A program made the position numbers and the translations under genes. Shown here in pieces: positions 5,276-51,490 of a stretch of 64,000 nucleotides of DNA (the first letter of the stretch is position 1; every line of letters begins with the position of its first letter). Origin of the DNA: Eledone cirrhosa (Eukaryota). The notes below the pieces were generated by a model. That model worked only from the letters and a program-made list of their open reading frames with translations, did no database searches and had not been told where the DNA came from. The DNA is taken from NCBI GenBank assembly GCA_964016885.1, contig OZ024741.1:184636001-184700000 (forward strand), read 5' to 3'.

Positions 5276-5318
<43 letters not shown>

Positions 5319-5320
<2 letters not shown>

Positions 5321-8300
5321 TTTCTTTATTGGCCACAAGGGCTGACATCAAGAAAAACATTGCAGACGGCACAGGACGGTACGATGTGGGTTTTGTTCGT
5401 GTAAAGATTTTTATTATTTATATAAGAAAAGAAAAAGAAAAAGACATAGAAACATATATATATATATAAACAATAAAAATGAAATTGAAACAATGAAAAA
5501 TTCCCCAATAGGGAGGAAACCTCCGAGGGTTACTCGTGGCGAAAACCACACAAAAGACCACGGCCACCTTGACCACCAGGGCAAGCGCCCTGTCTCAATT
5601 TTTCCATCTCTCAAACTACAGGCGTATATTCAGAGCGAACCCGTTCACACGGACCATTCTCACAATATTCACCCACCTTTCAACAAACTTGCTATAAAGC
5701 AGCACTTGCATCTCCACCCTTATTTTCCTCTTCAAGTGAAACTTGAAAAAGTTAATTAGGGATTCGCCGAAGAGGAAAATGTCTGTCTTTAACCCTTTCA
5801 AACTTGTCCACCACGCAATCTCTTTAGCCATGGCCACCAGGCAGATGAAAACCGCCTGCCCTTCCTCCTCGAAGGAAGACGGCGAAACCATCTGCACAAT
5901 GGATTCAGTCGATAACCGGATCAGTCCTACACGCGACAGCAACTGTTCGACATAGCACCACAAAGTCAGCGTGCTCGACGAAACCGTCGTGCACGCACTG
6001 AACGAGTGCTCGCAAGACGGTTTCGTCGCTCTGCGCGCATCTCGGACAGGCTCGGCTGACGGCACTTCCGTGCCTGTAGAGCTTATCTCGAACCGGCAAC
6101 GCTCCCCGGTAGCACTGCCAGGCCAGGGATTTTTGGAAGTTATCCATAAGCACTGGGCTGAAAGTTCTCCGGAAGAGAGCAAACACCTGATCTTCTTCGA
6201 CGCCCAGGATCTCTCCGAGAACGTCGTCGCTCTTCCCCTCCACTAGTCCTCTATAGAACGCCGAGGTAGATGTTCCACCGATACTGGTGCCCACCTGGCA
6301 GAGGGCAGAGAGCGCCTGGAGACATTCCAGTTTCCAAGCGCTATCCCTCGGTCTTTTCCTGACCCAGGACTGCAGCTCAGTCAAGGAGACGAGCTGTGGG
6401 AAAACGTGCCTGGCGAACAGCGACCACACCTGTTCATCCTCAAGGAAGCACCACAGATGTCGCAGCCACAGCGCATGTTTGCGCATCATCAGCCATGGAA
6501 TGCCCAGTCCTCCACGCAACGGGTGTTGACAGCAGATGGATCGTCCGACCATGGGAGCGCGTCCCTTCCACAAAAAGTGGAAGAGGAGGCGCTCCCTTTT
6601 GGTGAGAGTTGGGGCGGGGCAAGGGACGACGGTGAGGTGGTAGCAGATGACGGACGCGATGTACGCATTCGCCACCTCCGCCCGGTCATTCAGGGACAGC
6701 TTCCTCTCGGCCCATTTCTGGGTGAGAGAGGCCACCTTGCTCGTCACCTCGCTCCAGTTTATCTCCATCCGGAGGTCCGGTCCGAACCAGAAACCGAGAA
6801 ATTTAACCGGGCCGTCCGCCCAACGCCCTACGATGCTGTCGGACGGCATGGACTTGCCTCTCCAGGTGGCGAGCTGCAGGCCCACCGACGTTTCCTGGTT
6901 TATCTTTGTTCCTGTCATCGCTTCGTATTCCTCGAGAGCCGTGCCGAGCATCTGGACGTGTCTGGTGCTGGACACCATCATGGTGAGGTCGTCGGCGTAA
7001 GCCGACTCGAATTTCCCGCATCCTAGTTCGTGTGGGACGCTCCTCATCGCCCCCAGTTTGTGCAGTAATGGCTCGAAGTCCAATACGTACAAGAGGGACG
7101 AGAGGAGACAACACGAGCGGACCGAGCGCATGATGCTGAACGGCTGCGACAGATGACCGTTCACCCTCAAAACTGAGCAGCTGTCGCTGTACCTCGCAGC
7201 GATCCAACCCCTGAAAACGGGCCCGAAACTGGCTGTCTCGAGGACCGCCGCCAGGTACCGATGGTCAACCCTATCGAATGCTTTGGATTGATCCAAGTTG
7301 ATCAGGGCCCCACCCTTGTCACGTTCCTTAACCACCCTCTCTATGATGTATCGCATGAGGTGGAGGTTGTCGTGGATGGATCTGTCCGGAATGGTGCATG
7401 TCTGAGCTTCACTCACCAGACGCTTGACGACAAGCACCAACCTCGTTGCTAATACCTTGGCAAAAATCTTGAACTCTGCGTTTAGCAGGGTTACGGGCCG
7501 GAAATTATCGATAACATCCCGCTTGTTCGGGTCTTTTCTCAGCAGCGCCACCGCTCCCCGGCTCACAAAACTGGGAATGCTCCCGTTCTGCTGCCAGTTG
7601 CAGTAGACATCTGCCAAGAGGTCACCGAACAAGTCTGGCATAAATGCATAAAGCTCGAAGGGCAGACCATCCAAACCTGGCGATTTACCCCTCGTGCAGT
7701 TAGTCATCGCTTTCCGTATTTCACCGGCTGTTATTGGCTTTTCGCAACACTGTGCTGTGGTCGTCGAGAGCCGAGGCAGTCCGTCGAGGTATGTATTGAA
7801 GTCCATACCCCGATCCGGGCTGCCGCTGCTCCCGAACAGTTCAGCTAAGTGCTTCTGAAAAGCTTCACACATCTCCTCGGGTTCGAGCAACACGCACCCG
7901 CTTTGGTCAGACAAAGACCGAATTGTGGCTTTGTTGCCACGTCGCGCTTCTGCCACCCGGGCTCATTGGACGGCTTTTGTCCCCTCGTGTTTCAGAGCAC
8001 GCGCTCTAGCTCTGACAACGAAGCCTTCGTGTTTTGCGTTGAATAATTGGTCGAGTGCCAATCTCGGCGCAAGCACGTCGGTTGCGATGCCTGTCCTAAA
8101 CGCCTCTTCTAGCTTTCTGACTAGCTCTCCTTCTACTCTATTTTCCTCTATCACTAGTCCTTTGCTAAACCTAATCGACTCTACTTTAATAGCTCTTTTC
8201 AGTGCGAACCACCGCCTGTTGTTGACGACCGCTCCCGTCAACGCCCGCTTAACTAATACGCTAATCTGGTCTCTGTAGGCTTTGTGCGCCGGGAAAGACG

Positions 8301-9340
8301 CGTTCAGCTTCCAGTAACCGGGCCCTTGTCTATGAAGTCTGTGTATGTCGATCTCACAGATCACAAATTTGTGGTCTGTGTAGTCGACTATTTTATATTG
8401 TGGACAACTTATACTAGCCTTATATAGTTCTCTGCAGAGTACCCTATCGAGATACGATCTGGATGACCCGATGCGGTTTGTCCATGTCCACATTGGCACA
8501 TTCGAGTGATCCAGTCTATACCTGTCAGACAGCTCAAAATGTCTGAGCAGGTTGGTGAGGCTCTTTCACCCTCCTCCCTATCCACTAGCCCCACACAATC
8601 CCAGCGTGCATCCAAGACACCGTTCCAGTCGCCCACTAACACTAAAGAGAGGAACGTTCCAAGAAAGTTCTCTAGACGTCTGAAGAAATCTGGCCGTCCT
8701 GCCCCTGGTGGGGCGTAGACGGCTACTAGCCTGAAAGAATTGCTTTCGCTGCCGGTCACGTCCAGCACAACCGACTTACTTTCTGGGTCTAGGAAGATGG
8801 GCCGTATGGCGAGATCCAAGCCTTTCCGAAAAAGCACCCCCACCCCCCGATCCTGGACGGTTGAGAGATGCGTATATATCGTAGACACCCCGAAGATCGG
8901 TGCGAAGACTCGTCCTTCGGAGATTCTGGTATCGCTGATGGCCACCAGATCTATGTTTAGTGACCTGAGGTCGTTGAGCAGGTGACCCTGCTTCCAAGAA
9001 TACCCCAGGCCACGCGCATTTATACTGCCTATTCTGAGTACGGCCATGTTGGATGAGAAACAGGGCAAGTGAGAAAGGGTCACTTACCTTGATCGTGTGA
9101 TGAAGAGACAGTAGAACCGTCCCTTTGGCTGGTCATGGGTGTTTCCAAGAGAATGCCAGTGTATATCCTCTTTGTAACCGACCCTCTGAAGTCTCCAACT
9201 GCGTTGGGTAATTTTTGTTTTAAAAGTTTGTACTGTTCTATTTTGATATCAATGATGCTTATGTTTGTCGGAGAGTCCTTGGTGTTGGTGGGGTGTAGTA
9301 GTTTTTTTCTGTGATGTCTGTGTGCTGCTTTATATATTGT
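5319..9340 (-). mobile_element. Tx1/L1-clade non-LTR retrotransposon copy 1, 5'-truncated within ORF1, inserted in (TAA)n
   Basis: APE-RT-zinc ORF2; 3' end CCTTGTGGCCAATAAAGAAATC followed by (ATT)n; (AAT)4 at the 5' junction. Confidence 0.93.
5616..9047 (-). pseudogene. Tx1 ORF2 (AP endonuclease + reverse transcriptase + C-terminal zinc motif), frameshifted
   Basis: GSINARGL, VYAP, GDWNG, SYLDR, TDHK, GPGYWKLN; KSPGLDGLP, NFRPVTLL, DQSKAFDRV, AYADD; CPRC..ETV. Split across ORFs 8409-9083, 7963-8499, 5905-7956 and 5616-6182. Confidence 0.95.
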
Positions 9341-9353
9341 AATAATAATAATT

Positions 9354-10561
9354 AGGAGAGTTAGGAGCGTATTAAAATCACATCTGAACAGTAGGAATGC
9401 CATAAGTGCAGTAAATTCCCGAGCTGTGTCTATTATTATGTACAGTGCGGGAATTCTGAGATGGAATGTTGCTGAACAAAAAGAAATGGATAGGAAGACT
9501 AGGAAGCTATTGACTAACTACAATATGTTCCACAAAAGGAGTGATGTCGATAGACTCTACTTAAGGAGATCTGAAGGTGGAAGAGGTCTTATCAGCATAG
9601 AGGACTCTGTTCTGATGGAGAAAAACAACCTGCACAAATACGTGACTGATAGTAGGGAGCCAATGCTCAGAATTGTACTGAAGGAGAGGACAATAGACCA
9701 GGGGATGTCCAAGGAGGAAATAACAACAAGGAGAAAGAGCAACCTTCATGAAAAATCCCTTCATAGTGCATTCTTTGAGAAAACTGAATTAAGAGATCCA
9801 CAGACATGGAACTGGTTGAGGAGACCTTAAAAAGGCTACAGAAGGAATGCTAATGGCTGCGCAAGAGCAGGCTCACAAAATAAAGTGGCTGAAACACCAT
9901 ATTTACAAGGAGGAGGCTAGCCCACTGTGTAGGATCTGTGGAGAGAGAGAGAGGAAACTGTGGCTCACATTGTATCCAAGTGTAAATACCTAGCCCAGAC
10001 TCACTATAAAGGCTGGAGACATGATGTGATGGGAAGGGTGATCCACTGGCACCTATGAAAAGTAAACAATTTGCCGCATTCTGAGAAGTGGTATGAGCAT
10101 AAGCCAGAGTCGGTGATGGAAAACGATCAGGTGAAGTGCTGTGGCATTTTAGGATACAGACGGACAAGAAACTCGAACACAATAGACCTGACCTGTTGGT
10201 TTTGGACAAGAAAAAAATATCGCGCATTATTGTGGATGTGGCCTGCCCATTCGACACGAGAGTGCAAGAGAAGGAGAGGGAGAAAATTAACCGATACCAG
10301 GACTTATGGGAGGTAAAAAGGATTTGGAACTGCCATGAAGTCAAAGTGGTCGCGATTGTCATAGGCGCACTAGGTACTATCTCAAAGAGTTTCCAGGAAT
10401 GGTTAAAGAAAATTGGCCCCGCCCCGCTTTTTGGAACACTTCTGAAGGCATGCTTGCTGGGAACAGCAAGAACCCCTGAAAATCTGAGGCTGCAGGTAGT
10501 GGCTTGGTATTCATTTCAACAAACTTTCCAGTTAACTAACATGAATGACTGAGACTCAAAG
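9354..10561 (+). mobile_element. R4/Dong-clade non-LTR retrotransposon (RLE endonuclease) copy 1, 5'-truncated, frameshifted
   Basis: RT C-terminus DRKTRKLL..SDVDRLY..RSEGGRGL, CRICG..ET..H zinc knuckle, RPD..DVACP..EK..RY nuclease motif, (AAT)n tail. Confidence 0.92.
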
Positions 10562-10839
10562 AACAATAACAATAATAATAATAATAATGATAATAATGCT
10601 TTCTTTATTAACCAAAAGGGTTTAACACAAAGTAGACATTAAGGACGATACAGGACGGTACAAATGGGCATTTCTGCGTGTAAAAAAACAAAAAACAGAG
10701 GATGTAATAATAGAACAATGAAAAAAATTCCCCAATAGGGGGGAGACTTCCGAGGGTCATTTGTGGAGAAAGCCCATTAAAAGGCCACAGTGACCCTTAC
10801 ACCAGGGCAAGTGCCCTCTCCCAGTTTTCCATCTTTAAT

Positions 10840-13800
10840 TTACAGACACATACTCAGAGTAGGCCCATTCACTCGGGCCATTCTAGTCTCTCTCACCCAT
10901 CTTTCAACAAAATGCTGGGAAGAGAGCACTTCCCTCTCTACCCTGATTTTACTTTTCAAATGAAATTTGAAAATATAATCAGGGCATCACCGAAGAGGTA
11001 AGTGCTCGTCTTCAGCCCTTTCAAACGTGTCCACCATACTATCTCTTTCGCCATGGCCACCAGACAGATAAAAACTGCCTGCCCTTCCCGGTTAAAGGAA
11101 GAGGGCGTGGCAATCCTCACGATGGTCTCAGCTGATAGCCGGATCCGTCCTACACGCGACAGCAGGTGTTCGACATAAACCCACAAGTCAGCCATGCTCG
11201 GACACTGGACGAGTGCGTGCAGGACGGTTTCGTCGCCCTGCGCGCATCGTGACATGCCCAGCTGGCGGCACCTCCATGCCTGTAGAGTTTATCCCGAACT
11301 GTAAAGCTCCTCGGTAGCACTGCCAGGCCGGGGATTTCTGGAAATTTTTCATAGGCCCCGGCCTGAAAGTTCTTCCGAAGAGATTGGCTAGTTGATTTTC
11401 GTCGACGTCGAGAGTTTCCCCAAGTACGTCGTCGCTCTTCCTCTCCACTAATCCTCTATAGAACGCCGAGGTGGAGTTTCCACCGATCACATTGCCGGAT
11501 TGGTCGAGGGCTGTGAGCGGCTGAAGACATTCCAGTCTCCAAGCTCTCGCTCTCGGTCTTCGCTTGACCCAGGACGGCAGCGCCATCAAGGAGACGAGCT
11601 GGGGAAAGACGCTTCTAGCAAACGGCGACCACACCTGATCACTGTCGAGGAAGAGGTGAAGATGACGTAGCCTGAGCGCGTGTCTGCGCATCATCAGCCA
11701 CGGAAAGCCCAGCCTTCCATGTAGCGGGTGTTGACAGCAGATGGACCGCCTGACCATCGGAGCGCGTCCCTTCCACAAAAAGCGAAAGAGCAAACGCCTC
11801 TGCGCAGTCAGGCGAGGCTTAGGACACGGTACGACGGTCAGGCGGTAGTAGATGACGGACGCGATGTACGCGTTAGCCACCTCCGCTCGACCTTTCAGGG
11901 TGACAGAAGTCACCCTGCTCGTCACTTCGTCCCAGTTTTTGTCCGTCTGGATGTCCGGACCGAACCAGACCTCTAGCAATTTAAACGGTCCGTCCGTCCA
12001 GCGTCCGTCCGAGCTGCAGGCACACTGACTATTCCTGGTTGAAAATTGCTCCTGTCACCGTTTCGTATTCTCTTAGTGTCGTGCCGATGGCCTCGATGTG
12101 TTTGGCGTTCGACATTACTACGGTGATATCGTCCGCATATGCTGACACGGATCTTCCGCCTCCTAGTGCGCGCGGGAATCCCCTCAACGTCTCCAGTTTG
12201 TGCAGTAATGGCTCGAGAGTCAATACGTACAAGAGGGACGAGAGGGAACATCCTTAGCGGACCGAGCACATGATGTTGAACGGTTCCGAAAGGTGACTGT
12301 TCACTCTTACCACAGAGCAGATGTCGCTGTGCATGGCAGCGATCCAGCCTCTGAAGACGGGCCAAAAGCCAGCCGCCTTCAGGACTGCCGCTGAGTAACG
12401 ATGGTCGACCCTATCGAAAGCTTTCAACTGATCTAAATTGATCAAGGACCCAACCGTGCCAATTTCCCTAGCTACCCTCTCTACGATGTATCGCATGAGG
12501 TGGAGGTTGTCGTGGATGGATCTGTCGGGAATGGGGCATGTCTGCGCCTCTCCCACCAGACCACCAACGACAATCGCCAAACTCTTTTCTAGCACCTTGG
12601 ACAAAATCTTGAACTCTGTGTTTAGCAGAGTTATGGGCCTGAAATTATCTATGTTATCCCCCTTCTTCGGATCTTTTCTCAGCAGCGCCACCACTCCTCG
12701 CCTCACAGAGCTGGGAATTCTCCCGTTCTGTTGTCAGTTGCAGTAGACGTCCGCCAAGAGGCCTCCAAACAAGTCTGGCATATGTACGTATAGTTCATAT
12801 GGCAGACCATCCAAACCAGGCGATTTACCCCTTGTGCAGCCAGACATTGCCTCCCGCATTTCAGCGGCTGTTATCTGATTTTCGCAACACTCCGCCTTAG
12901 TGGCCGAGAGCTGCGGCAGTCCGTCGAGGTAGACACTAAAGTCCATGCCTCGACCCGGTCCGCCGCTGCCCCCGAACAGCTGTGCGAAGTGTCGCTGAAA
13001 AGTTTCACACATTTTCCCGGGATCGAGTAAAATGAGCCCGTCGCGGTCCACCAAAGACCGGATCGTGGCTTTGTTGCTACGACGCGCCTCCGCCACTCGG
13101 ACCCATTGAATGGCTTTCGTCCCCTCGTGTATGAGAGCACGCACCCTAGCTCTGACAACGCAGCATCCGTGCTTTGCATTGAAGAATTTGTCAAGGGCCA
13201 ATTTCGCCGCAAGTACGTCGGTTGCGATGCCTTTGCTAAGCACTTCGTCTAATTTTCTAATTAGTTCTCTCTCTGCTCTATTTTTCTCTACAGCTAAAGC
13301 CTTACTAAACATAATGGACTCTATTCTAATCGCTCTTTTCAGAGCATACCACCACTTGTTGTTGACGATGACGCCGTCAAGGACCGCTTAACTAGTTTGC
13401 TAAACTGGTCTCTGTAGACCTTGCGCGCTCGTAAGGACGCGTTTAGCTTCCAGTAGCCGGGTCCTCGTCTATGAAGCCTATCTAAGTCTAGCACACAGAT
13501 CACGAATTCGTGGTCCGTGTAGCTGACTATCTTGAATTGTGGACAGCCTATGCTAGACCTATCTATTTCCCCACAATACTCTATCTAGATATGATCTGGA
13601 TGACACGATGCCGTTTGTCCAAGTCCACATTGGCGGATTCGGGAAATCCAAACGGTAGGTGTCAGACAGTTCAAAACGCCTGAGCAGGTTGGTGAGACTC
13701 TTGCACCCTCCTCCCCTATCCGCTAATCCCACACAGTCGCAGCGTGCATCTAAGATCCCGTTCCAGTCGCCCACTAACACTAAAGAGCGGGACGTTCCTA

Positions 13801-14187
13801 GAAAGTCTCCAGACGCCGGAAGAAATCAGGCCGCCCTGCTCCTGTCGGGGCATAGACGGCCACTAGCCTGAAAGCTTGCCCGTCTCCGCTGGTCACGTCC
13901 AGCACCACCAACTTACCTTCTGGCTCCAGGAAGATGGCCCGTATGGCGAGATCCAAACCTCTCCGAAAAAGCACAGCAACTCCTCCCCCCAATCCCGGAC
14001 GGCTGGGAGATGCGTACACATCGTAGCCGCCGAAGATCGGTGCGAAGGCCCGTGCTTCGGAGATTCTGGTCTCGCTGATAGCCACTACATCTATGTTTAG
14101 TGACCTGAGGTCGTTGAGCAGGTGGCCCTGCTTCCATGACGACCCCAAGCCACGCGCATTTATGCTGCCTATTCTGAGTTAGGTCAT
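10840..14187 (-). pseudogene. Tx1 copy 2 ORF2 (APE + RT + zinc motif), multiple stops and frameshifts
   Basis: Collinear with copy 1 ORF2: AISETR, VYAP, GDWNG, KSPGLDGLP, KAFDRV, AYADD, ETVLHALVQC. Confidence 0.95.
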
Positions 14188-14221
14188 GTTGAAATGGAGT
14201 GGGAAAGATGGGAAAGACCAC

Positions 14222-16089
14222 TTACCTTACTTCTCGTAGAGGAAGGATGGTTTCTCCAACCCTTTTCACTTGATCGTCTGGTGAAGGGACCGTTGAATCG
14301 TCCCTTCGGCTGGTCGTCGGCTGTTCTGAGAGTATATCCGAATATACTCTCCGGTTGAGTGTCCCTCCTAGGTCTCTGAAATCACCAACTGCGTTGGGGA
14401 ATTTCGTTTTAATGTTTGTGTATTGTTTCTGTGCTATTCTTACCAGCCTTATGTTTGTTGGTGTTTTTATTGGTGCTGGTATTATGTAGTCGTGCTGTGA
14501 AATATCTGTGTGTTCAATTAAGTAAGTCATTAGTTTCTTGTTGTGTGTATTTATTGCTGTTCATTTGTTTTTCTGGGGGTGGGGGGTGGTTCTGCTATTT
14601 TCTTGTCGTTGTTGCTTGGTGTGTTTTTTGTTGTTGTGTTTGCGATGCTGGTGCTTGTGGTGGTGGTGATGGTGTTGTTGTTGTTTGTGGTGGGGTTGTG
14701 CTGGTGGTGATGGTGGTGCTAGTGTGGGTAGTGATGGTGTTGGTGGTGTTGCTGCTTTAAGTCTCTTTGCAGTAGCACTTACCTTTTTTCATTTCTTCCT
14801 TCCCTTTTCGAAGGCGACGATGCGCTGCTTCTGCGTTTGAGCCTTATTGCGACCTTTTGAAATCCCTCTCCCACCTCACACTCCATGTCCGATTCTGTGT
14901 CGTCGGGGAGGGGTACCAGCTCCACTCGTTCACTTGTTGTTGTTGGTGATGTTTGCAGTGTAGTCTCTGTTGCAGCTGCCGTTGGTATTACTGTTGTTGT
15001 TGTTAATACTTCCACTGCTGCTGCTATTCTTGATTTCCGTGGCGTGGGTATGGGTTCCACGGACCTATCCTTCCTGGTTGCCGCCTGTCCTGTTGCTGGT
15101 AGCATTGGAGCCGGTTTCGGAAGGAGGGGGGGTCTCCTTTCTCTGGGTCTTCTCATTGCAGAAGGCCCTGAGGTGAGTCTTCGATCCAGAGCGAAAGCAT
15201 TTCGGGATTTTGCCCTCAACATTTATGGGCAGTTGAGTGCCGTTATCGAAGTCTATCACATCCGGAATAGCTTCGATGCACTCCTGGTTGGTTTGGATTA
15301 ACATCTCAATGGAGGTGCCGGCCCAATCTTCTCGTACTTTTTTCTGTACTTGCAGTACAGTTGTTTTGTCCTCGATTCCGACGAGGACAGACGCGGCCAG
15401 CCAAAAAGGGGCCTTCCTGGGGGGGAAGGAGTCAGTTTGACCCTCACAATTTTTTGCCCGCAGTAGGAGGGCACCAACACCATTTCCTCGCCACTTAGGG
15501 TTACTAAGGATTAAGCCTTTGCCTACTAGGGTGTGGCAGAAAGCACGTCCACGGTGGCATATTTCTTGCCTCGGGTGATATGCGTTTTCTGCTGCCACAC
15601 AGACCCTAAGGCTTCTTGTATTTGAGCCTCGGTGGCTCTTTCAACTCTACGGGATTTTGTGCTTACTGTACGGTACGTGACCGTACAGTGCTGTTGAGTT
15701 TCGAAAATATTTTCGGCTGCCTTGCAAACTGCTCGCTGTCCGGTTTTCGTCACCATCTTTTTTGCTTCCTGTAATTCCTCATTTGTTATAAGGATGGTTT
15801 CCAGGTTCTTTGCGATACCTGCAAACGAGATTGGTTTTTCTTTCTTGTTGTTGTTGTTGTTGTTGTCGTCAGCGCTGCTGTTACTTTTGTTGTTATTTGT
15901 TGTTACTACGACGGCCGCCGCCGCTGTTGCTGTGGTTGTTGTTGTTGTTGTTGCTGCTGCTGCTGTTGTTGTTGCTGTTTCTGCTGTTGCTGTTGTTGTT
16001 TATGCTGCTGCTGATGTTGTTGCGGCTGCTACTAGTGTTTTCCTTGATACTGTTGCTGCTGCTGCTGCTCTTATTACGTCTGACGTCAT
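14222..16089 (-). pseudogene. Tx1 copy 2 ORF1 (gag-like), frameshifted
   Basis: ATG at 16089 is in frame with ORF 15526-15756; Ala/Thr-rich N-terminus, PISFAGIAK, degenerate zinc knuckle CFRSGSKTHLRAFC, low-complexity linker; C-terminal block shared with copy 1 (PNAVGDFR). Confidence 0.75.
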
Positions 16090-16605
16090 GAAGAATACTT
16101 CATGACGTCAGACGAATGAAATGGCTTTCCGTATTTACCGCACACATTTTTCGTCGTTGTCGTCGTCGTGGAGAAATGTTCCACGGAATGCACGCTCTCT
16201 TGGTGAAATCTATCAGAAACTATATTTTCTTTTTCTTTAATAGCGTCGCTTGCGAAAGAGAAGAGAGGGAGAGAGACACATTTAGAGAAGGGAGGGAGAG
16301 AGACAATCTTCTCTCTGATGTAGGGACGATTGAGGAAGAAGAAAACGGAATGAGTGGGAGTGACTTGTGAAAATTTTTGTTTGTAGCCATGTTTTTTTTT
16401 TGTTTCAAATGAATATTGGGCACACAACCCCAATAAGTGGTTATTTAACCCCGAAGGGCCAAATAACGGGCTGAAAGACCCCTCTCACGAGGAGGAGGGT
16501 GTTTTTATCTACAATTTGATTAAAGTTTTAAACAAATTACAATTGTTATAGCGGTTAAAATTTACTATACCTTACAGAGACGAGCCTCCGTCAACCATAA
16601 CATTC

Positions 16606-16656
<51 letters not shown>

Positions 16657-16657
<1 letters not shown>

Positions 16658-17657
16658 GAAGAGGTCTTATCAGCATAGAGGACTGTGTTCGGATGGAGAA
16701 AAACAACCTATACAAATACGTGACCTATAGTAAGGAGCCAATGCTCAGAGCTGTACTGAAGGAGGGGACAGTAGGCCAGGGGATACCCAAGGAGGAAATA
16801 ACATCAAGGAGGAAGAGCAGCCTTAAGGGAAAATCCCTTCATAGTACCTTCTTTGAGAAAACTGAATTTAGAGATCCACAGACATGGAACTGGTTGAGAA
16901 GAGGAGACCTCAAAAAGGCTACAGAAGGAATGCTAATGGCTGCGCAGGAGCAGGCCCTCAAAACGAAGTGGTTGAAGCACCATATCTACAAGGAGGAGGC
17001 TAGCCCACTGTGCAGGATCTGTGGAGAGAGAGAGGAGACTGTGGCTCACATTGTGTCCGAGTGTAAACACCTAGCCCAGACCCACTATAAGGGCTGGAGA
17101 CACGATGTGATGGGCAGGGTGATCCACTGGCACCTGTGCAAAGTAAACAATCTACCACATTCTGAGAAATGGTATGAGCATAGGCCAGAGGCGGTGATGG
17201 AGAACAATCAGGTGAAGGTGCTGTGGGATTTTAGGATACAGACGGACAAAAAACTGGAACACAATAGACCTGACCTGGTGGTTGTGGACAAAGAAAAAAG
17301 ATCGTGCCTGATTGTGGATGTGGCCTGCCCGTTCGACACGAGAGTGCAAGAGAAGGAGAGGGAGAAAATTAACCGATACCAGGACCTAAAGTGGGAGGTG
17401 AAAAGGATTTGGAACTGCCATGAAGTCAAAGTGATCCCGATTGTCATAGGCGCACTGGGGACTATCTCCAAAGGTTTCCAGGGATGGTTAAAGAAAATCG
17501 GCCCCTTCACGCTTTTTGGAACGCTTCAAAAGGCATGCTTGCTTGGAACGGCAAGAACCCTCCGATACGTCCTGAATATCTGAGGCTGCAGGTAGTGGCT
17601 TGATATTCAATCCAACGGACTTTCCAGTTAACCAACATCAATGACTGAGATTCAAGG
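16657..17657 (+). mobile_element. R4/Dong-clade retrotransposon copy 2, 5'-truncated, C-terminal frame intact (ORF 16693-17583)
   Basis: CRICGEREETVAHIVSEC, RHD, RPDLVVVD, DVACP, EKINRY, PIVIGALG; (AAT)n on both sides. Confidence 0.94.
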
Positions 17658-17669
17658 AATAACAATAAC

Positions 17670-17738
<69 letters not shown>

Positions 17739-18781: not shown

Positions 18782-18958
18782 AATAATAATTGTTTCTACT
18801 TTAGGCACAAGGCCAGCAATTAACCAGTGCATTACTGGTACTTTATTTTATCGACCCTGAAAGGCAAAGTTAACCTCGGCGGGATTTGAACTCAGAATGG
18901 AAAGGGCCGTAACTCTATGCTGCAAAGCATGGCGTCAGACCCTCTACCGATACTGCCA
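18782..18958 (-). mobile_element. tRNA-derived SINE
   Basis: Same family consensus, with a small internal deletion. Confidence 0.9.
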
Positions 18959-19094
18959 AGACAATAATAATGTCCTGAAGACTGACAATGCCAACGATAA
19001 CAACACCAACTCCAACAATAGCAACAACAGTTCAGTATAACAACACCTTGAAACCTAAAAAGAAAATGGAAACAAATATCCATCCACAAACACA

Positions 19095-47045: not shown

Positions 47046-47545
47046 CTTCTTGTATAATATTTTCTGTATTCACCTCGCTCTTAATATCTCATCTTTTATA
47101 GAAAATAATCGGCACGGTTTTGTCTTTCAATTGTCTTCACTGCTCATGTAAAAGTAAAGTCGGATGCGTTTTCGACAGACCTCGTATATATAAATGCGTG
47201 TAGTCTTAGTAGCTTAACACCAAACAAACCAGGTTATATACCATCATGATCAGCCTTCGGACTTTATACATACACACATACGTCCGTACGTATGTACGTA
47301 CATACATACATGATAGCAGGTTATATACCATCATGATCAGCCTTCGGACTTTATACATACACACATACGTACATACGTATGTACGTAGATACATACAAAC
47401 ATACGTACATACGTATGTACGTAGATACATACACACATACGTACATACGTATGTACGTAGATACATACATACATACATGATGGCTGCCCCCTCGTTATCG
47501 AGTATGGCTATTGCACGAAAAAAAGATAATAATAATAATAATAAT

Positions 47546-47750
47546 GCTTTCTTTAATACCCACAAGGGTTTACACAAAGTAGACATTAAGGACAGTACAG
47601 GACAATACAGGACGGTACAACTGGTCCATCCGTCCAGCGCCCGACGACGCCGTTGGACGGCATGGACCTGCCTCACCAGGTGCCAAGCTGCAAGCCCACC
47701 GACTTTTCCTGGTTGATCATTGCTCCTGTCACCGCTTCGTATTCTCTTAG
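47546..47750 (-). mobile_element. Tx1 copy 3: 3' tip fused to an internal RT fragment
   Basis: 47546-47620 matches the 3' end of copy 2; 47621-47750 matches the RT region of copies 1 and 2 (~6810-6930; ~11985-12077). Confidence 0.88.
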
Positions 47751-48896
47751 TCCCGAGCTGTGTCTATTATTAGGTACAGTGCGGGAATTCTGAAATGGAA
47801 TGTTGCTGAACAAAAAGAACTGGATAGGAAGGCTAGGAAACTATTGACTATCTACAACATCTTCCACAAGAGGATTGATGTCGATAGACTCTACTTAAAG
47901 AGATCTGAAGATGAAAGAAGTCTTACCAGTATAGAGGACTGTGTTCAGATGGAGAAAAACAACCTGCACAAATACGTGACTGACAGTAGGGAGCCAATGC
48001 TCAAAATTTTACTGAAGGAGAGGACAATAGACCAGGGGATGTCCAGGGAGGAAATAACAGCAAGGAGGAAGAGCAACCTTCATGAAATATCCCTTCTTAG
48101 TACCTTCTTTGAGAAAACTGAATTCAGAGATCCACAGGCGTGGAACTGGTTAAAGCGAGGAGACCTTAAAAAGGCTACAGAAGAAATGCTAATGGCTGAG
48201 CAAGAGCAAGCCCTCAGAACGAAGTGGGTGAAACATCATATTTACAAGGAGGCTAGCCCACTGTGTAGGATCTGTGGAGAGAGAGAGGAGACTGTGGCTC
48301 ACATTGTATCCGAGTGTAAACACCTAGCCAAGGCTGGAATCATGATGTGATGGGCAGGGTGATCCACTGGCACATATGCAAAGTAAACAATTTACCGCAT
48401 TCTGAGAAGTGGTATGAGCATAAGCCAGAGTCGGTGATAGAAAACGATCAGGTGAAGGTGCTATGGGATTTTAGGATACAGACGGACAAGAAACTGGAAC
48501 ACAATAGGCCTGACCTGGTGGTTTTAGACAAGGAAAAAAGATCGTGCCTGATTGCAGATGTAGCTTGCCCATTTGACACGAGAGTGCAAGAAAAGGAGAG
48601 GGAGAAAATTAACGGATACCAGGACTTAAAGTGGGAGGTAAAAAGGATTTGGAACTACCATGAAATCAGAGTCGTCCCGATTGTCATAGGCGCACTAGGT
48701 ATTATCTCAAAGAGTTTCCAAGGATGGTTAAATAAAATTAGTGCAGCCCCGCTTTTTGGAACACTTCAAAAGGCATGCTTGCTGGGAACAGCAAGAACCC
48801 TCCGATACGTCCTGAATATCTGAGGCTGCAGGTAGCGGCTTGATATTCATTTCAACAAACTTTCCAGTTAAATAACATCAATGTCTGAAACTCAAA

Positions 48897-48897
<1 letters not shown>
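47751..48897 (+). mobile_element. R4/Dong-clade retrotransposon copy 3, 5'-truncated
   Basis: ORFs 47760-48350 and 48347-48823 closely match copies 1 and 2; (AAT)n tail. Confidence 0.93.
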
Positions 48898-48940
<43 letters not shown>

Positions 48941-49351
48941 TATATCACATAAGAAACGGAGAATCAATGTTGCGACGAATAAAATTTACTAGACATATTA
49001 CAATCGTTTCTCTAGCGATCAGCTCGAGGCGCGATCAATGTAATGGTCGAACCTCATCTGAAATCGCAAGATCCTCAGATACCCCACGATTCCACGAGCC
49101 TACGAAGCAGAGTTTCAAAAATAATGTATATATATAAGAGAGTGTTGAAGTTTGCTTGAAGTATAGGCATAATTAAATCACTTCCAAGGTAATTCTATCT
49201 CGTGTTATTATTTTTACACTCCTTCCTACGTTCCACACACCCTATACGTCTCATTCTACATTTCCTCTCATATCTCTCTCATTACCACCTGATTCTGTTA
49301 CCCGGAGATTTACCCATCTGCATTGTTGAGGCTTCCAAACGACCAATTTTC

Positions 49352-49384
<33 letters not shown>

Positions 49385-49539
49385 ACTCACATATATAAAT
49401 ACCGATATACATACAAATACACAAACACATATATACATGTACACACATACATATATACATATGTACATAATCATATACATACACAAACCCCCCCCCCCCA
49501 CATACACACACACATACATATAGACACATATATATTAAC

Positions 49540-51490
49540 AATTAATGGTACTGTGATCGAATGTGGCTTTTTAGCCCGGCCAATGATCTTAAATGTTTTG
49601 CACAGAGTTGGCAACCACAACATTCACTGACAACAGCCGGCTGTGGTTGGACTTCATATACTTTCGCATGTTGTTTGAGCCTTCCTGCTGATCTACACTT
49701 TCTTCCACATGCTTGACAGGTATGATGAGCAGCATCTTCGACAGCAGCCTGGTAGTCAACCACTGGTCTCACTTTATGACTGCGAAGATGGCTTTCGAGT
49801 CCAGCTTTGCTAAGGCGGTGTCTCCCACAGACGCTGCATGTCAGCACCATAGGAGGACCTTCGCTGTCTGGATATGTAACAGCAACGCCTTTTCTCACAT
49901 CCCTTTTTATTTTCTCGTATACGATTCGAGATGTTTCAAAAGCAACTTTTCCCTCGTGTACAGTCTTTCTCCATTTATCACGATCAGCAGCTACGCTTTA
50001 CCATGTATCAGCAGAGATGTTAGCGTCTTTCAGAGAGGCTTTCAAAGAATCCTTATACCTCTTTTTGGTTTATCTGGAGGTCGTTTTCCAATACCTAACT
50101 CTCCATAAAAAGTTATTTCGGTATTCTAGAATCCTTCAGCCTGGCAAGGTGGCCACTCCATCGGAATCTTTGCTTAAGCACAAGAGCTTCTATACTTTCA
50201 CGCAGAGAGCTTTCCAAAATCTCGACATCACTGATGCGGTCCCTCTAGTGAAAGTCATGGATCCGTCTGATGGAAACGCTCCAATTGTTTAAGGTGGTGT
50301 CGAAATGTGACCCAGGTCTCGCAGGCATAAAGAAGAGAAGAGAGCACACATGTCTTGTAAACCTTTACCTTTGTCTTCTTGCATATGTCTCGCCGACCCC
50401 AGAGTCGCCTTTCTAGCTTTCCGAAAGCATCACTTGCTTTCCTAATCCTGAGTGGAAATTCCTTATCAAGATTGCTGTATCGATTGACAGTTCTCCCCAG
50501 GTAGACAAACTGATCAACCACTCCAAGTCATTTACCATACACATAGATATTTGGTTCACTGTAATGCTTACCAGGGGCGGGTTGGTACATGACGGTTTTC
50601 TTGAGATTGACAGTCAATGATAGGGCAGTGCAAGCATCAGAAAATGCATGGAAAATGTGCTGCATATCAATCTCTGTGTGCGCTACAAGATTGCAATCAT
50701 CTGCATACAAGGGGTCTCTTACGATTGAGGTAAATACTTTTGTTTTTGCAGCAAAGTGTCTGATGTTAAATATGCTGCAAGAGGTTTGAAAGTAGATGTA
50801 AAAGCCATGCTTGCGATTCCTGAATGCAATATAGAAAACCATCGCAAAGTATAAGGCAAACAGGCTCGGTGCTGGAATATCCCCCTGTTTCACTCCATTT
50901 TTCACTGAGATAGGCTCCGACATGGGAAGACCTAACCAAAGCAAGGAACTTATCAGGGCAACCAAGTTTCTGGAGAACCTTCCACAATGCATTTCTGTTA
51001 ACAGTATCGAAAGCTTTTGTCAGGTCAACAAAAACCTGATACAGATCCAAACCTAGTTCCACGCACTTCTCCTGGAGCTGTCTAGCTCAGAAGATCATAT
51101 CAGTAGTGCCGCGTCCCGCAGGAAAACCAGATTGACTTTCAGGAAGAACACAACCTGCGATGTGTGTCAGCAGACGGTCCAGAAGCACTCTACATAACAT
51201 TTTTCCTACGAGAGAAAACAATGATATACCCCTGTAGTTTCCACAATCATTCTTGTTACCATTTCCCTTGTTCAAGTACGAATTCACTAGACCATATCCT
51301 GCCAAACGAAGACTGAAGATGTTGCAGAATTCTCTCACCACCATATTGTAAGAGCTCTGCATGCCTAGAGACCTTCCACTTCTCAGCTTCGAGATAGCTA
51401 CTGCAACCTCCCCAAATGGCGGTGCTTCTGCGAGAGCTACTTTCAGACGTTTTTCAGGAATGAGATTGAGGAAATCTGAGGCAATTTTCT
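49540..51490 (-). mobile_element. RTE-clade LINE, 5'-truncated, decayed, with three C-terminal C2H2 zinc fingers
   Basis: NYRGISL, PESQSGF..GRGTTDMIF, FVDLTKAFDTV, GVKQG, YADD, FVYLG, LLYACETW; three CxxC..GL..H fingers. Confidence 0.92.

Follow-up and report, generated by a model that had tools for sequence, protein, structure and literature searches.

At positions 47526..48940 of the window, a stretch of 64,000 nucleotides of Eledone cirrhosa DNA, two retrotransposon remnants lie head to head within one microsatellite. Read from left to right they comprise an (AAT)n tract, a Tx1-type LINE stub on the minus strand, one T common to both elements, an R4/Dong-type LINE on the plus strand and a second (AAT)n tract (Table 1). 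Direct reading and comparison with natural copies confirmed this order, the 1-nt overlap and the lack of a linker, all of which had been proposed in a preliminary description of the window. The Tx1-type stub measures 206 nt and carries an internal gap of about 1.35 kb. Its 133-nt reverse transcriptase (RT) piece maps 1434-1566 nt from the Tx1 3' end, the two pieces meet over a common AA, and 1.34-1.36 kb is absent relative to the closest copies, in agreement with the deletion of some 1.3 kb reported earlier. The R4/Dong-type part, about 1.15 kb (1147 nt), is approximately 93% identical to its nearest sampled copies, relative to which it has deletions of 3 nt and 13 nt, the latter shifting the frame.

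Table 1. Features of the fused pair and of its host repeat (window positions)
Feature	Position	Strand	Remarks
Left part of older host repeat with internal A/AAT/TA microsatellite containing the pair	47440..47525	+	
(AAT)n tract at Tx1 3' end, (ATA)6.7	47526..47545	+	ATT tail/target of Tx1 on minus strand
Tx1-type LINE, 3'-terminal ~75 nt with native 3' end	47546..47620	-	92-97% identical to same end of most close copies
Tx1 internal RT-region piece, 133 nt, same subfamily as terminal piece	47619..47751	-	Best genome match 97%
T common to Tx1 and R4, 1-nt microhomology, no AAT linker	47751..47751	.	From natural copies; unique in genome
5'-truncated R4/Dong-type LINE: RT thumb, CCHC finger, restriction-like endonuclease region, 3' UTR	47751..48897	+	
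(AAT)n tract at R4 3' end, (AAT)14.3	48898..48940	+	
Right part of same host repeat	49535..49900	+	82-88% identical to other copies

In natural copies the Tx1 sequence continues at the joint as ...CTCTTAGT-GTAGTGCC and the R4 sequence is preceded by ...GCAGTAAAT-TCCCGAG, which means that the two elements overlap by the single T at 47751 and that AAT is absent from the joint. A search for the 25-nt junction that tolerated up to 2 mismatches located it once in the 3.0-Gb genome. An amplified composite element was rejected on these grounds, the joint being spanned by none of the other 39 scored matches, and a shared internally deleted Tx1 family was set aside since, among the Tx1 matches scored, none of the 39 others covers both Tx1 pieces in one match. 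Both outer borders of the pair fall within AAT and no non-repeat target-site duplication surrounds it. The left and right parts of the host repeat occur in this order, 179-1404 nt apart, at five other places of the sample described below; the flanks are thus two halves of one older repeat, the outer flanks are continuous and the pair lies in one tract. None of 40 scored candidates proved to be a close duplicate of the left flank that could represent a second haplotype in the assembly.

The window holds two further head-to-head Tx1/R4 pairs, both with linkers. An array at 5277-17710 consists of Tx1 (-), R4 (+), Tx1 (-) and R4 (+) separated by AAT linkers, and its last R4 (16658-17657) has zero private changes in 900 nt and is very recent. 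An abundant SINE (window 18786-18962, and many other loci) has an end that resembles the Tx1 3' end and shows the polarity of Tx1 in AAT tracts.

The two LINE families

An intact relative of the R4-type element has a single ORF of 1141 aa that matches RVT_1 and lacks a match to Exo_endo_phos (no APE domain). Motifs of the CRIC..H..C and RPD..D..K types are visible in the R4 translation and mark a C-terminal CCHC finger and a restriction-like endonuclease; the C-terminal region also matches the R2 structures 9dou/9nl3 weakly (E 0.006-0.012). In the sample 154 native R4 3' ends are followed by at least 3 AAT units. The intact Tx1 relative encodes, behind an ORF1 region, an ORF of 1204 aa with Exo_endo_phos (APE), RVT_1 and zf-RVT, and full-length Tx1 copies reach about 6 kb. 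Both families possess intact young copies. Counting 3' ends by motif with at most 1 mismatch gave 12,777 for R4 and 9,529 for Tx1. Searches for other Tx1 subfamilies gave counts of 818, 1221 and 2041.

A search for protein homologues recovered almost no named clade members. The Tx1 label, taken from the preliminary description, is provisional and follows architecture and target specificity, not an RT tree. The family resembles the Tx1-clade elements Kibi and Koshi in being a two-ORF element with APE endonuclease, RT and zinc finger that inserts into simple repeats. Kibi targets TC and Koshi TTC, whereas the present family targets (ATT)n, which is absent from the list in PMC3812793 as far as the available text of that source extends. 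The same text describes Dong, of the R4 clade, as TAA-microsatellite-specific LINEs. The R4-type family shares with Dong the single ORF, the RT, the CCHC finger, the PD..D-type endonuclease region, the AAT tail and target and the many 5'-truncated copies, but it shares its target with a Tx1-type family of opposite polarity, and its putative placement in R4/Dong likewise follows architecture and target, not a tree. Dong-R4 and L1-Tx1 families are given as recently active in Octopus vulgaris in the accessible part of PMC13282606.

In addition, a second abundant AAT-targeting R4-like family (L118:1618-6528 and others) starts its 5' UTR as the first does and has a different ORF, and at least two rarer R4-like families are also present. 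Fragments of another RT family lie in (ATAC)n repeats at L119, L182 and L184, a possible further microsatellite specialist.

Polarity, linker loss and age in the sampled copies

The sample comprised 80 of 87 regions anchored at R4 3' ends and 80 of 97 anchored at Tx1 3' ends, all within the initial 60 Mb of contig C1; after merging, these made up 115 segments of 1,403,509 bases (1.40 Mb), to which 87 short loci from similarity searches were added. The sample represents 0.05% of one haploid assembly, from one contig. Anchoring at 3' ends brings no bias at 5' joints and leaves lost 3' ends under-sampled. In what follows R4-type takes in the second abundant R4-like family and two minor ones.

In the 1.40-Mb sample 111 of 112 adjacent Tx1/R4-type pairs share one AAT polarity, R4 reading with AAT and Tx1 with ATT. 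Head-to-head and tail-to-tail pairs are about equally frequent (58 and 52), which is what one expects if new copies enter at both sides of an existing one. Because the polarity in AAT is fixed and opposite, any Tx1 followed by an R4 is head-to-head, so that such pairs are routine and their geometry is not diagnostic. Pairs were curated by hand; two rows lacking AAT at the joint itself were kept as linker-bearing since another simple repeat follows the AAT. Most head-to-head pairs keep an AAT linker and ten of the 58, one of them ambiguous, do not. The question raised earlier of whether such breakpoints are distinct or shared has a clear answer in this 1.40-Mb, one-contig sample, each of the ten fused pairs having its own.

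The linker is also absent at 14 of 100 R4-type 5' ends whose neighbour is unique DNA, a SINE or another R4, a class from which 9 artefact rows had been dropped, and this proportion does not differ from 10 of 58 (p=0.65); leaving out the tandem cases gives 12 of 44. All 83 recognised full-length Tx1 5' ends in the segments keep their AAT, and truncated Tx1 5' ends have lost it about half the time, whatever the neighbour. A simulation of deletions alone, built on 63 of 69 internal deletions, predicts about 5.8 fused pairs in 58 against the ten seen (p=0.06), although its outcome depends on four deletions longer than 2 kb and is unscaled for the age of the younger partner. The expectation that linker-less joints would be commoner than linker loss elsewhere was thus not borne out, and there is no excess in their number that calls for a new route; the refuting condition set in the preliminary description, linker-less junctions no commoner than deletions predict, accordingly weighs for the most part against co-insertion.

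Age was expressed as private bases, that is, bases unseen in the 3-5 closest sampled relatives, for which 328 of 390 copies (window copies aside) gave enough data; 30 artefact or duplicate rows were set aside in the counts of age and linker loss. The density of internal deletions increases with age, from 0.02 per kb in the youngest bin to 0.18 in the oldest for Tx1 and from 0.025 to 0.10 for R4-type copies, about four- to eightfold. The 5' linker is lost in 12 of 131 copies with less than 1% private divergence and in 28 of 160 older ones (p=0.04). Away from the sampling anchors, loss of the 3' end was found in none of 29 copies below 1% and in 13 of 60 older ones; four of these 13 are tandem joints that the insertion of a neighbour could have made. 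Of the 58 pairs, 45 could be dated. When the younger partner is below 1%, 3 of 33 are fused; when even the younger partner exceeds this age, 5 of 12 are (p=0.02). Co-insertion would also give part of this trend, since a single draw has a higher expected age than the minimum of two draws.

The pair at 47526..48940 belongs to the oldest age bin. Its R4 part has 34 private differences in 1139 (3.0%) and its Tx1 part 5 in 210 (2.4%; p=0.82); these matching ages fit one event, with little power given a 95% interval of 0.8-5.5% for Tx1. In four other fused pairs of the same subfamilies as the present one (R4 C with Tx a) the Tx1 is the younger partner, with 24 private differences in 2791 (0.86%) against 47 in 2281 (2.06%) for R4 (p=0.0004), and linker-bearing pairs behave likewise (0.53% against 1.58%). 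The pooled offset supports sequential insertion and is not decisive, as the age measure may be biased between families. Discordant ages were found in 2 of 8 fused and 17 of 37 linker-bearing pairs, a difference that is not significant (p=0.44). The youngest fused pair with both ages measured stands at no less than 0.85% pooled divergence (8 pairs), and 26% of copies lie below 0.5%.

Fused pairs are distinguished by their lengths. Of 10 fused pairs, 6 consist of two short partners (Tx1 below 2 kb, R4 below 1.3 kb), compared with 3 of 48 pairs with a linker. When the templated case described below (L139) is removed, 5 of 9 remain against 11% by deletion simulation (p=0.001) and about 21% under a hand-calculated sequential model (p=0.02), numbers that are small and depend on cut-offs set after the data had been seen. 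Moreover, where the fused Tx1 is short, its R4 partner has less length than the R4 in all linker-bearing pairs (p=0.004) and than that beside a short linked Tx1 (p=0.045). Subfamily may confound this excess, since at the loci of this older R4 subfamily a short Tx1 likewise adjoins 4 of the 5 short R4s that keep a linker. We could not explain the pattern away. Most internal deletions are below 1 kb, too small to make the present pair from a full-length pair in one step.

Overlaps at the fused joints are as long as those at internal deletions, with a median of 2 nt in both (p=0.71, overlap in BLAST alignments being used as a proxy). Two of 52 tail-to-tail pairs are fused with both 3' ends lost (L190 at 2690/2705 and L208 at 5530/5536), and at L142 two R4 copies of opposite polarity are joined 5' to 5'. 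None of these three joints is possible from priming at one AAT tract; joints of this kind can thus form with no second RNA. An inversion by twin priming on the same RNA was ruled out for L142 (6301/6315), where there are two R4 copies, each with its own tail.

Origin of the linker-less joint

The Tx1 and R4 stubs were probably inserted one after the other in one AAT microsatellite, the AAT between them being lost afterwards. Microhomology-mediated joining would have removed the linker plus some of the adjoining ends, in an order and at a time that we infer. The opposite orientation, the outward tail on each part and the microhomology at the joint are all present at this locus, and all three are equally the default outcome of sequential insertion plus loss. 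As to when the linker disappeared, a later chromosomal deletion is quite possible, though short of an even chance, as the pair is old and carries three other deletions; a somewhat more tentative alternative is that the linker went as the second, 5'-truncated copy joined its target, the target duplication being lost. The sequence cannot tell these two apart.

For sequential insertion followed by loss we count the polarity rule, the similar frequencies of linker loss in head-to-head pairs and elsewhere, the link between loss and age, the matching overlap lengths, the joints at L190, L208 and L142, the pooled age offset and the precedent of R2. According to the available text of PMC2718515, 5'-truncated R2 copies combine microhomology with deletion of upstream target, and the accessible parts of PMC2718515, PMC4245944 and PMC11371274 give microhomology and target loss at truncated 5' ends as known in R2 and other LINEs; snap-back and flank-templated junctions are described for R2 in what is available of PMC11371274. 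The joints seen here resemble truncated R2/R1 junctions in their 1-8 nt overlaps at the 5' joint, in upstream target loss and in the occasional copying of nearby DNA (PMC2718515, PMC11371274, as far as their available text goes). They differ in having another LINE as the upstream DNA and in the scale of the losses that they imply, hundreds to thousands of bases. Against the sequential reading we count the excess of pairs in which both partners are short, the shorter R4 beside a short fused Tx1, the small size of internal deletions, the 5.8 pairs predicted against ten, the ages at the locus, which do not differ, the less frequent age discordance of fused pairs and the tandem nature of 4 of 13 lost 3' ends. 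If correct, sequential insertion with loss makes the joint a product of the usual decay, or of inexact joining, among clustered LINEs that target microsatellites, of use chiefly as a gauge of how often junctions are lost.

The preliminary description had raised instead the possibility that the pair arose by twin priming on two elements, in one co-insertion at a cut AAT tract. Here the ATT-ending strand would have primed the R4 RNA and the AAT-ending strand the Tx1 RNA, whose AUU tail would pair perfectly with it; the two truncated cDNAs would then have been joined over one base, and the internal gap of the Tx1 part would stem either from a jump along the template or from deletion afterwards. 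The geometry allows this, with native 3' ends on both sides and continuous outer flanks, the joint is a one-off, the ages of the two parts are compatible, intact young copies exist in both families, and the excess of doubly short pairs speaks in its favour. There are also partial precedents. Twin priming on two RNAs has been proposed for antisense tRNA/5S/Alu-L1 chimeras (PMC13174262, in its available part), and bridges of two L1s with two tails have been reported in tumours (10.1101/2024.08.27.596794, in its available part). L1 twin priming, whether as same-RNA 5' inversions or as two-RNA chimeras, resembles the present pair in its outward tails and in truncated 5' ends joined over microhomology, so far as the accessible text of these two sources describes it. 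In the L1 cases, according to the same text, a common target-site duplication and cross-species timing prove one event; the target here is pure repeat, so one genome can offer no such proof. A further difference is that both partners here are autonomous LINEs with different endonucleases. A literature search of partial coverage found no report of cross-clade or head-to-head twin priming.

Nevertheless co-insertion is unlikely to have made this pair. Linker-less joints show no numerical excess, linker loss increases with age, and other routes lead to equivalent joints. All dated fused pairs are at or above the 0.85% floor in spite of the many young copies, the one clearly young fused Tx1/R4 pair (L139) has a Tx1 part copied from flanking DNA, the four other fused pairs show a pooled age offset, and the agreement in age at the locus has little power. 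The resemblance of the R4 breakpoint to that of another R4 in the window (copy 1), which had been put at about 60 nt, was measured at 62 nt, the R4 start lying inside that of copy 1 by this distance (9355 against 9417). It carries little weight as evidence: of the sample's 110 truncated R4 5' ends, 3 lie no more than 76 nt from the breakpoint position. Derivation of the pair from copy 1 was rejected, since the two R4 copies are 89% identical and different Tx1 subfamilies adjoin them. It is similarly doubtful, though conceivable, that up to about one tenth of the head-to-head Tx1/R4 pairs, this one included, are single two-clade events in which one element, APE-type or restriction-endonuclease-type, rode on the cut of the other; the surplus of doubly short fused pairs is what speaks for it. 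Were co-insertion true, the free second-strand end of one LINE's cut would be usable by the RNA of another clade, and L1 with its passengers would not be the only case of two-RNA twin priming. With more than 12,000 R4 and more than 9,500 Tx1 3' ends on complementary strands of one target, this genome is a good place to test second-strand priming.

The Tx1 part could also have been copied from nearby chromosomal DNA during the joining of the R4 5' end, with no Tx1 RNA involved. Such a route was seen once in the sample, at L139:2313-3150 (G000:C1 about 29,463,100-29,463,970), where a young R4 of 503 nt has 101 nt between the upstream (AAT)n and its 5' end; these are identical to the Tx1 3' UTR beyond the tail of the same R4, start at an internal A-run and are joined over 6 nt. 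There the free strand of the target likely copied the downstream flank before joining the cDNA. A Tx1 stub in two pieces would fit template hopping, but the Tx1 copies of the window are 85-89% identical and offer no donor, the best match among 40 scored genome candidates is 97%, and no Tx1 lies beyond the R4 tail at the locus; this missing donor appears largely to refute a templated origin, which we regard as very improbable. Least probable of all is an assembly mis-join between two repeats: in 4 of 8 public runs, all of them contigs, X3 and X4 from one sample have exact matches to the left flank and none listed bridges the joints, as contigs break in repeats, the runs X1 and X2 being of too small a share to count as evidence, whereas the outer flanks are two halves of one host repeat, 14 other linker-less joints have distinct breakpoints and private changes are at a similar level in both parts.

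Some other junctions of the sample deserve mention. A second young R4 (L133:4515-4700) carries at its 5' joint a patchwork of pieces from the downstream flank and from R4, which suggests repeated template switching; the tandem-repeat context may contribute. At L162:6234-6327 there is a 94-nt inverted duplication of the snap-back type at an R4 5' end. At L123:7130-7980 a Tx1 of 749 nt lies reversed inside ORF1 of another Tx1, where the sequence is rich in AAC. Its target duplication measures about 16 nt and it lacks an ATT tail, which suggests that the Tx1 tail derives from the target.
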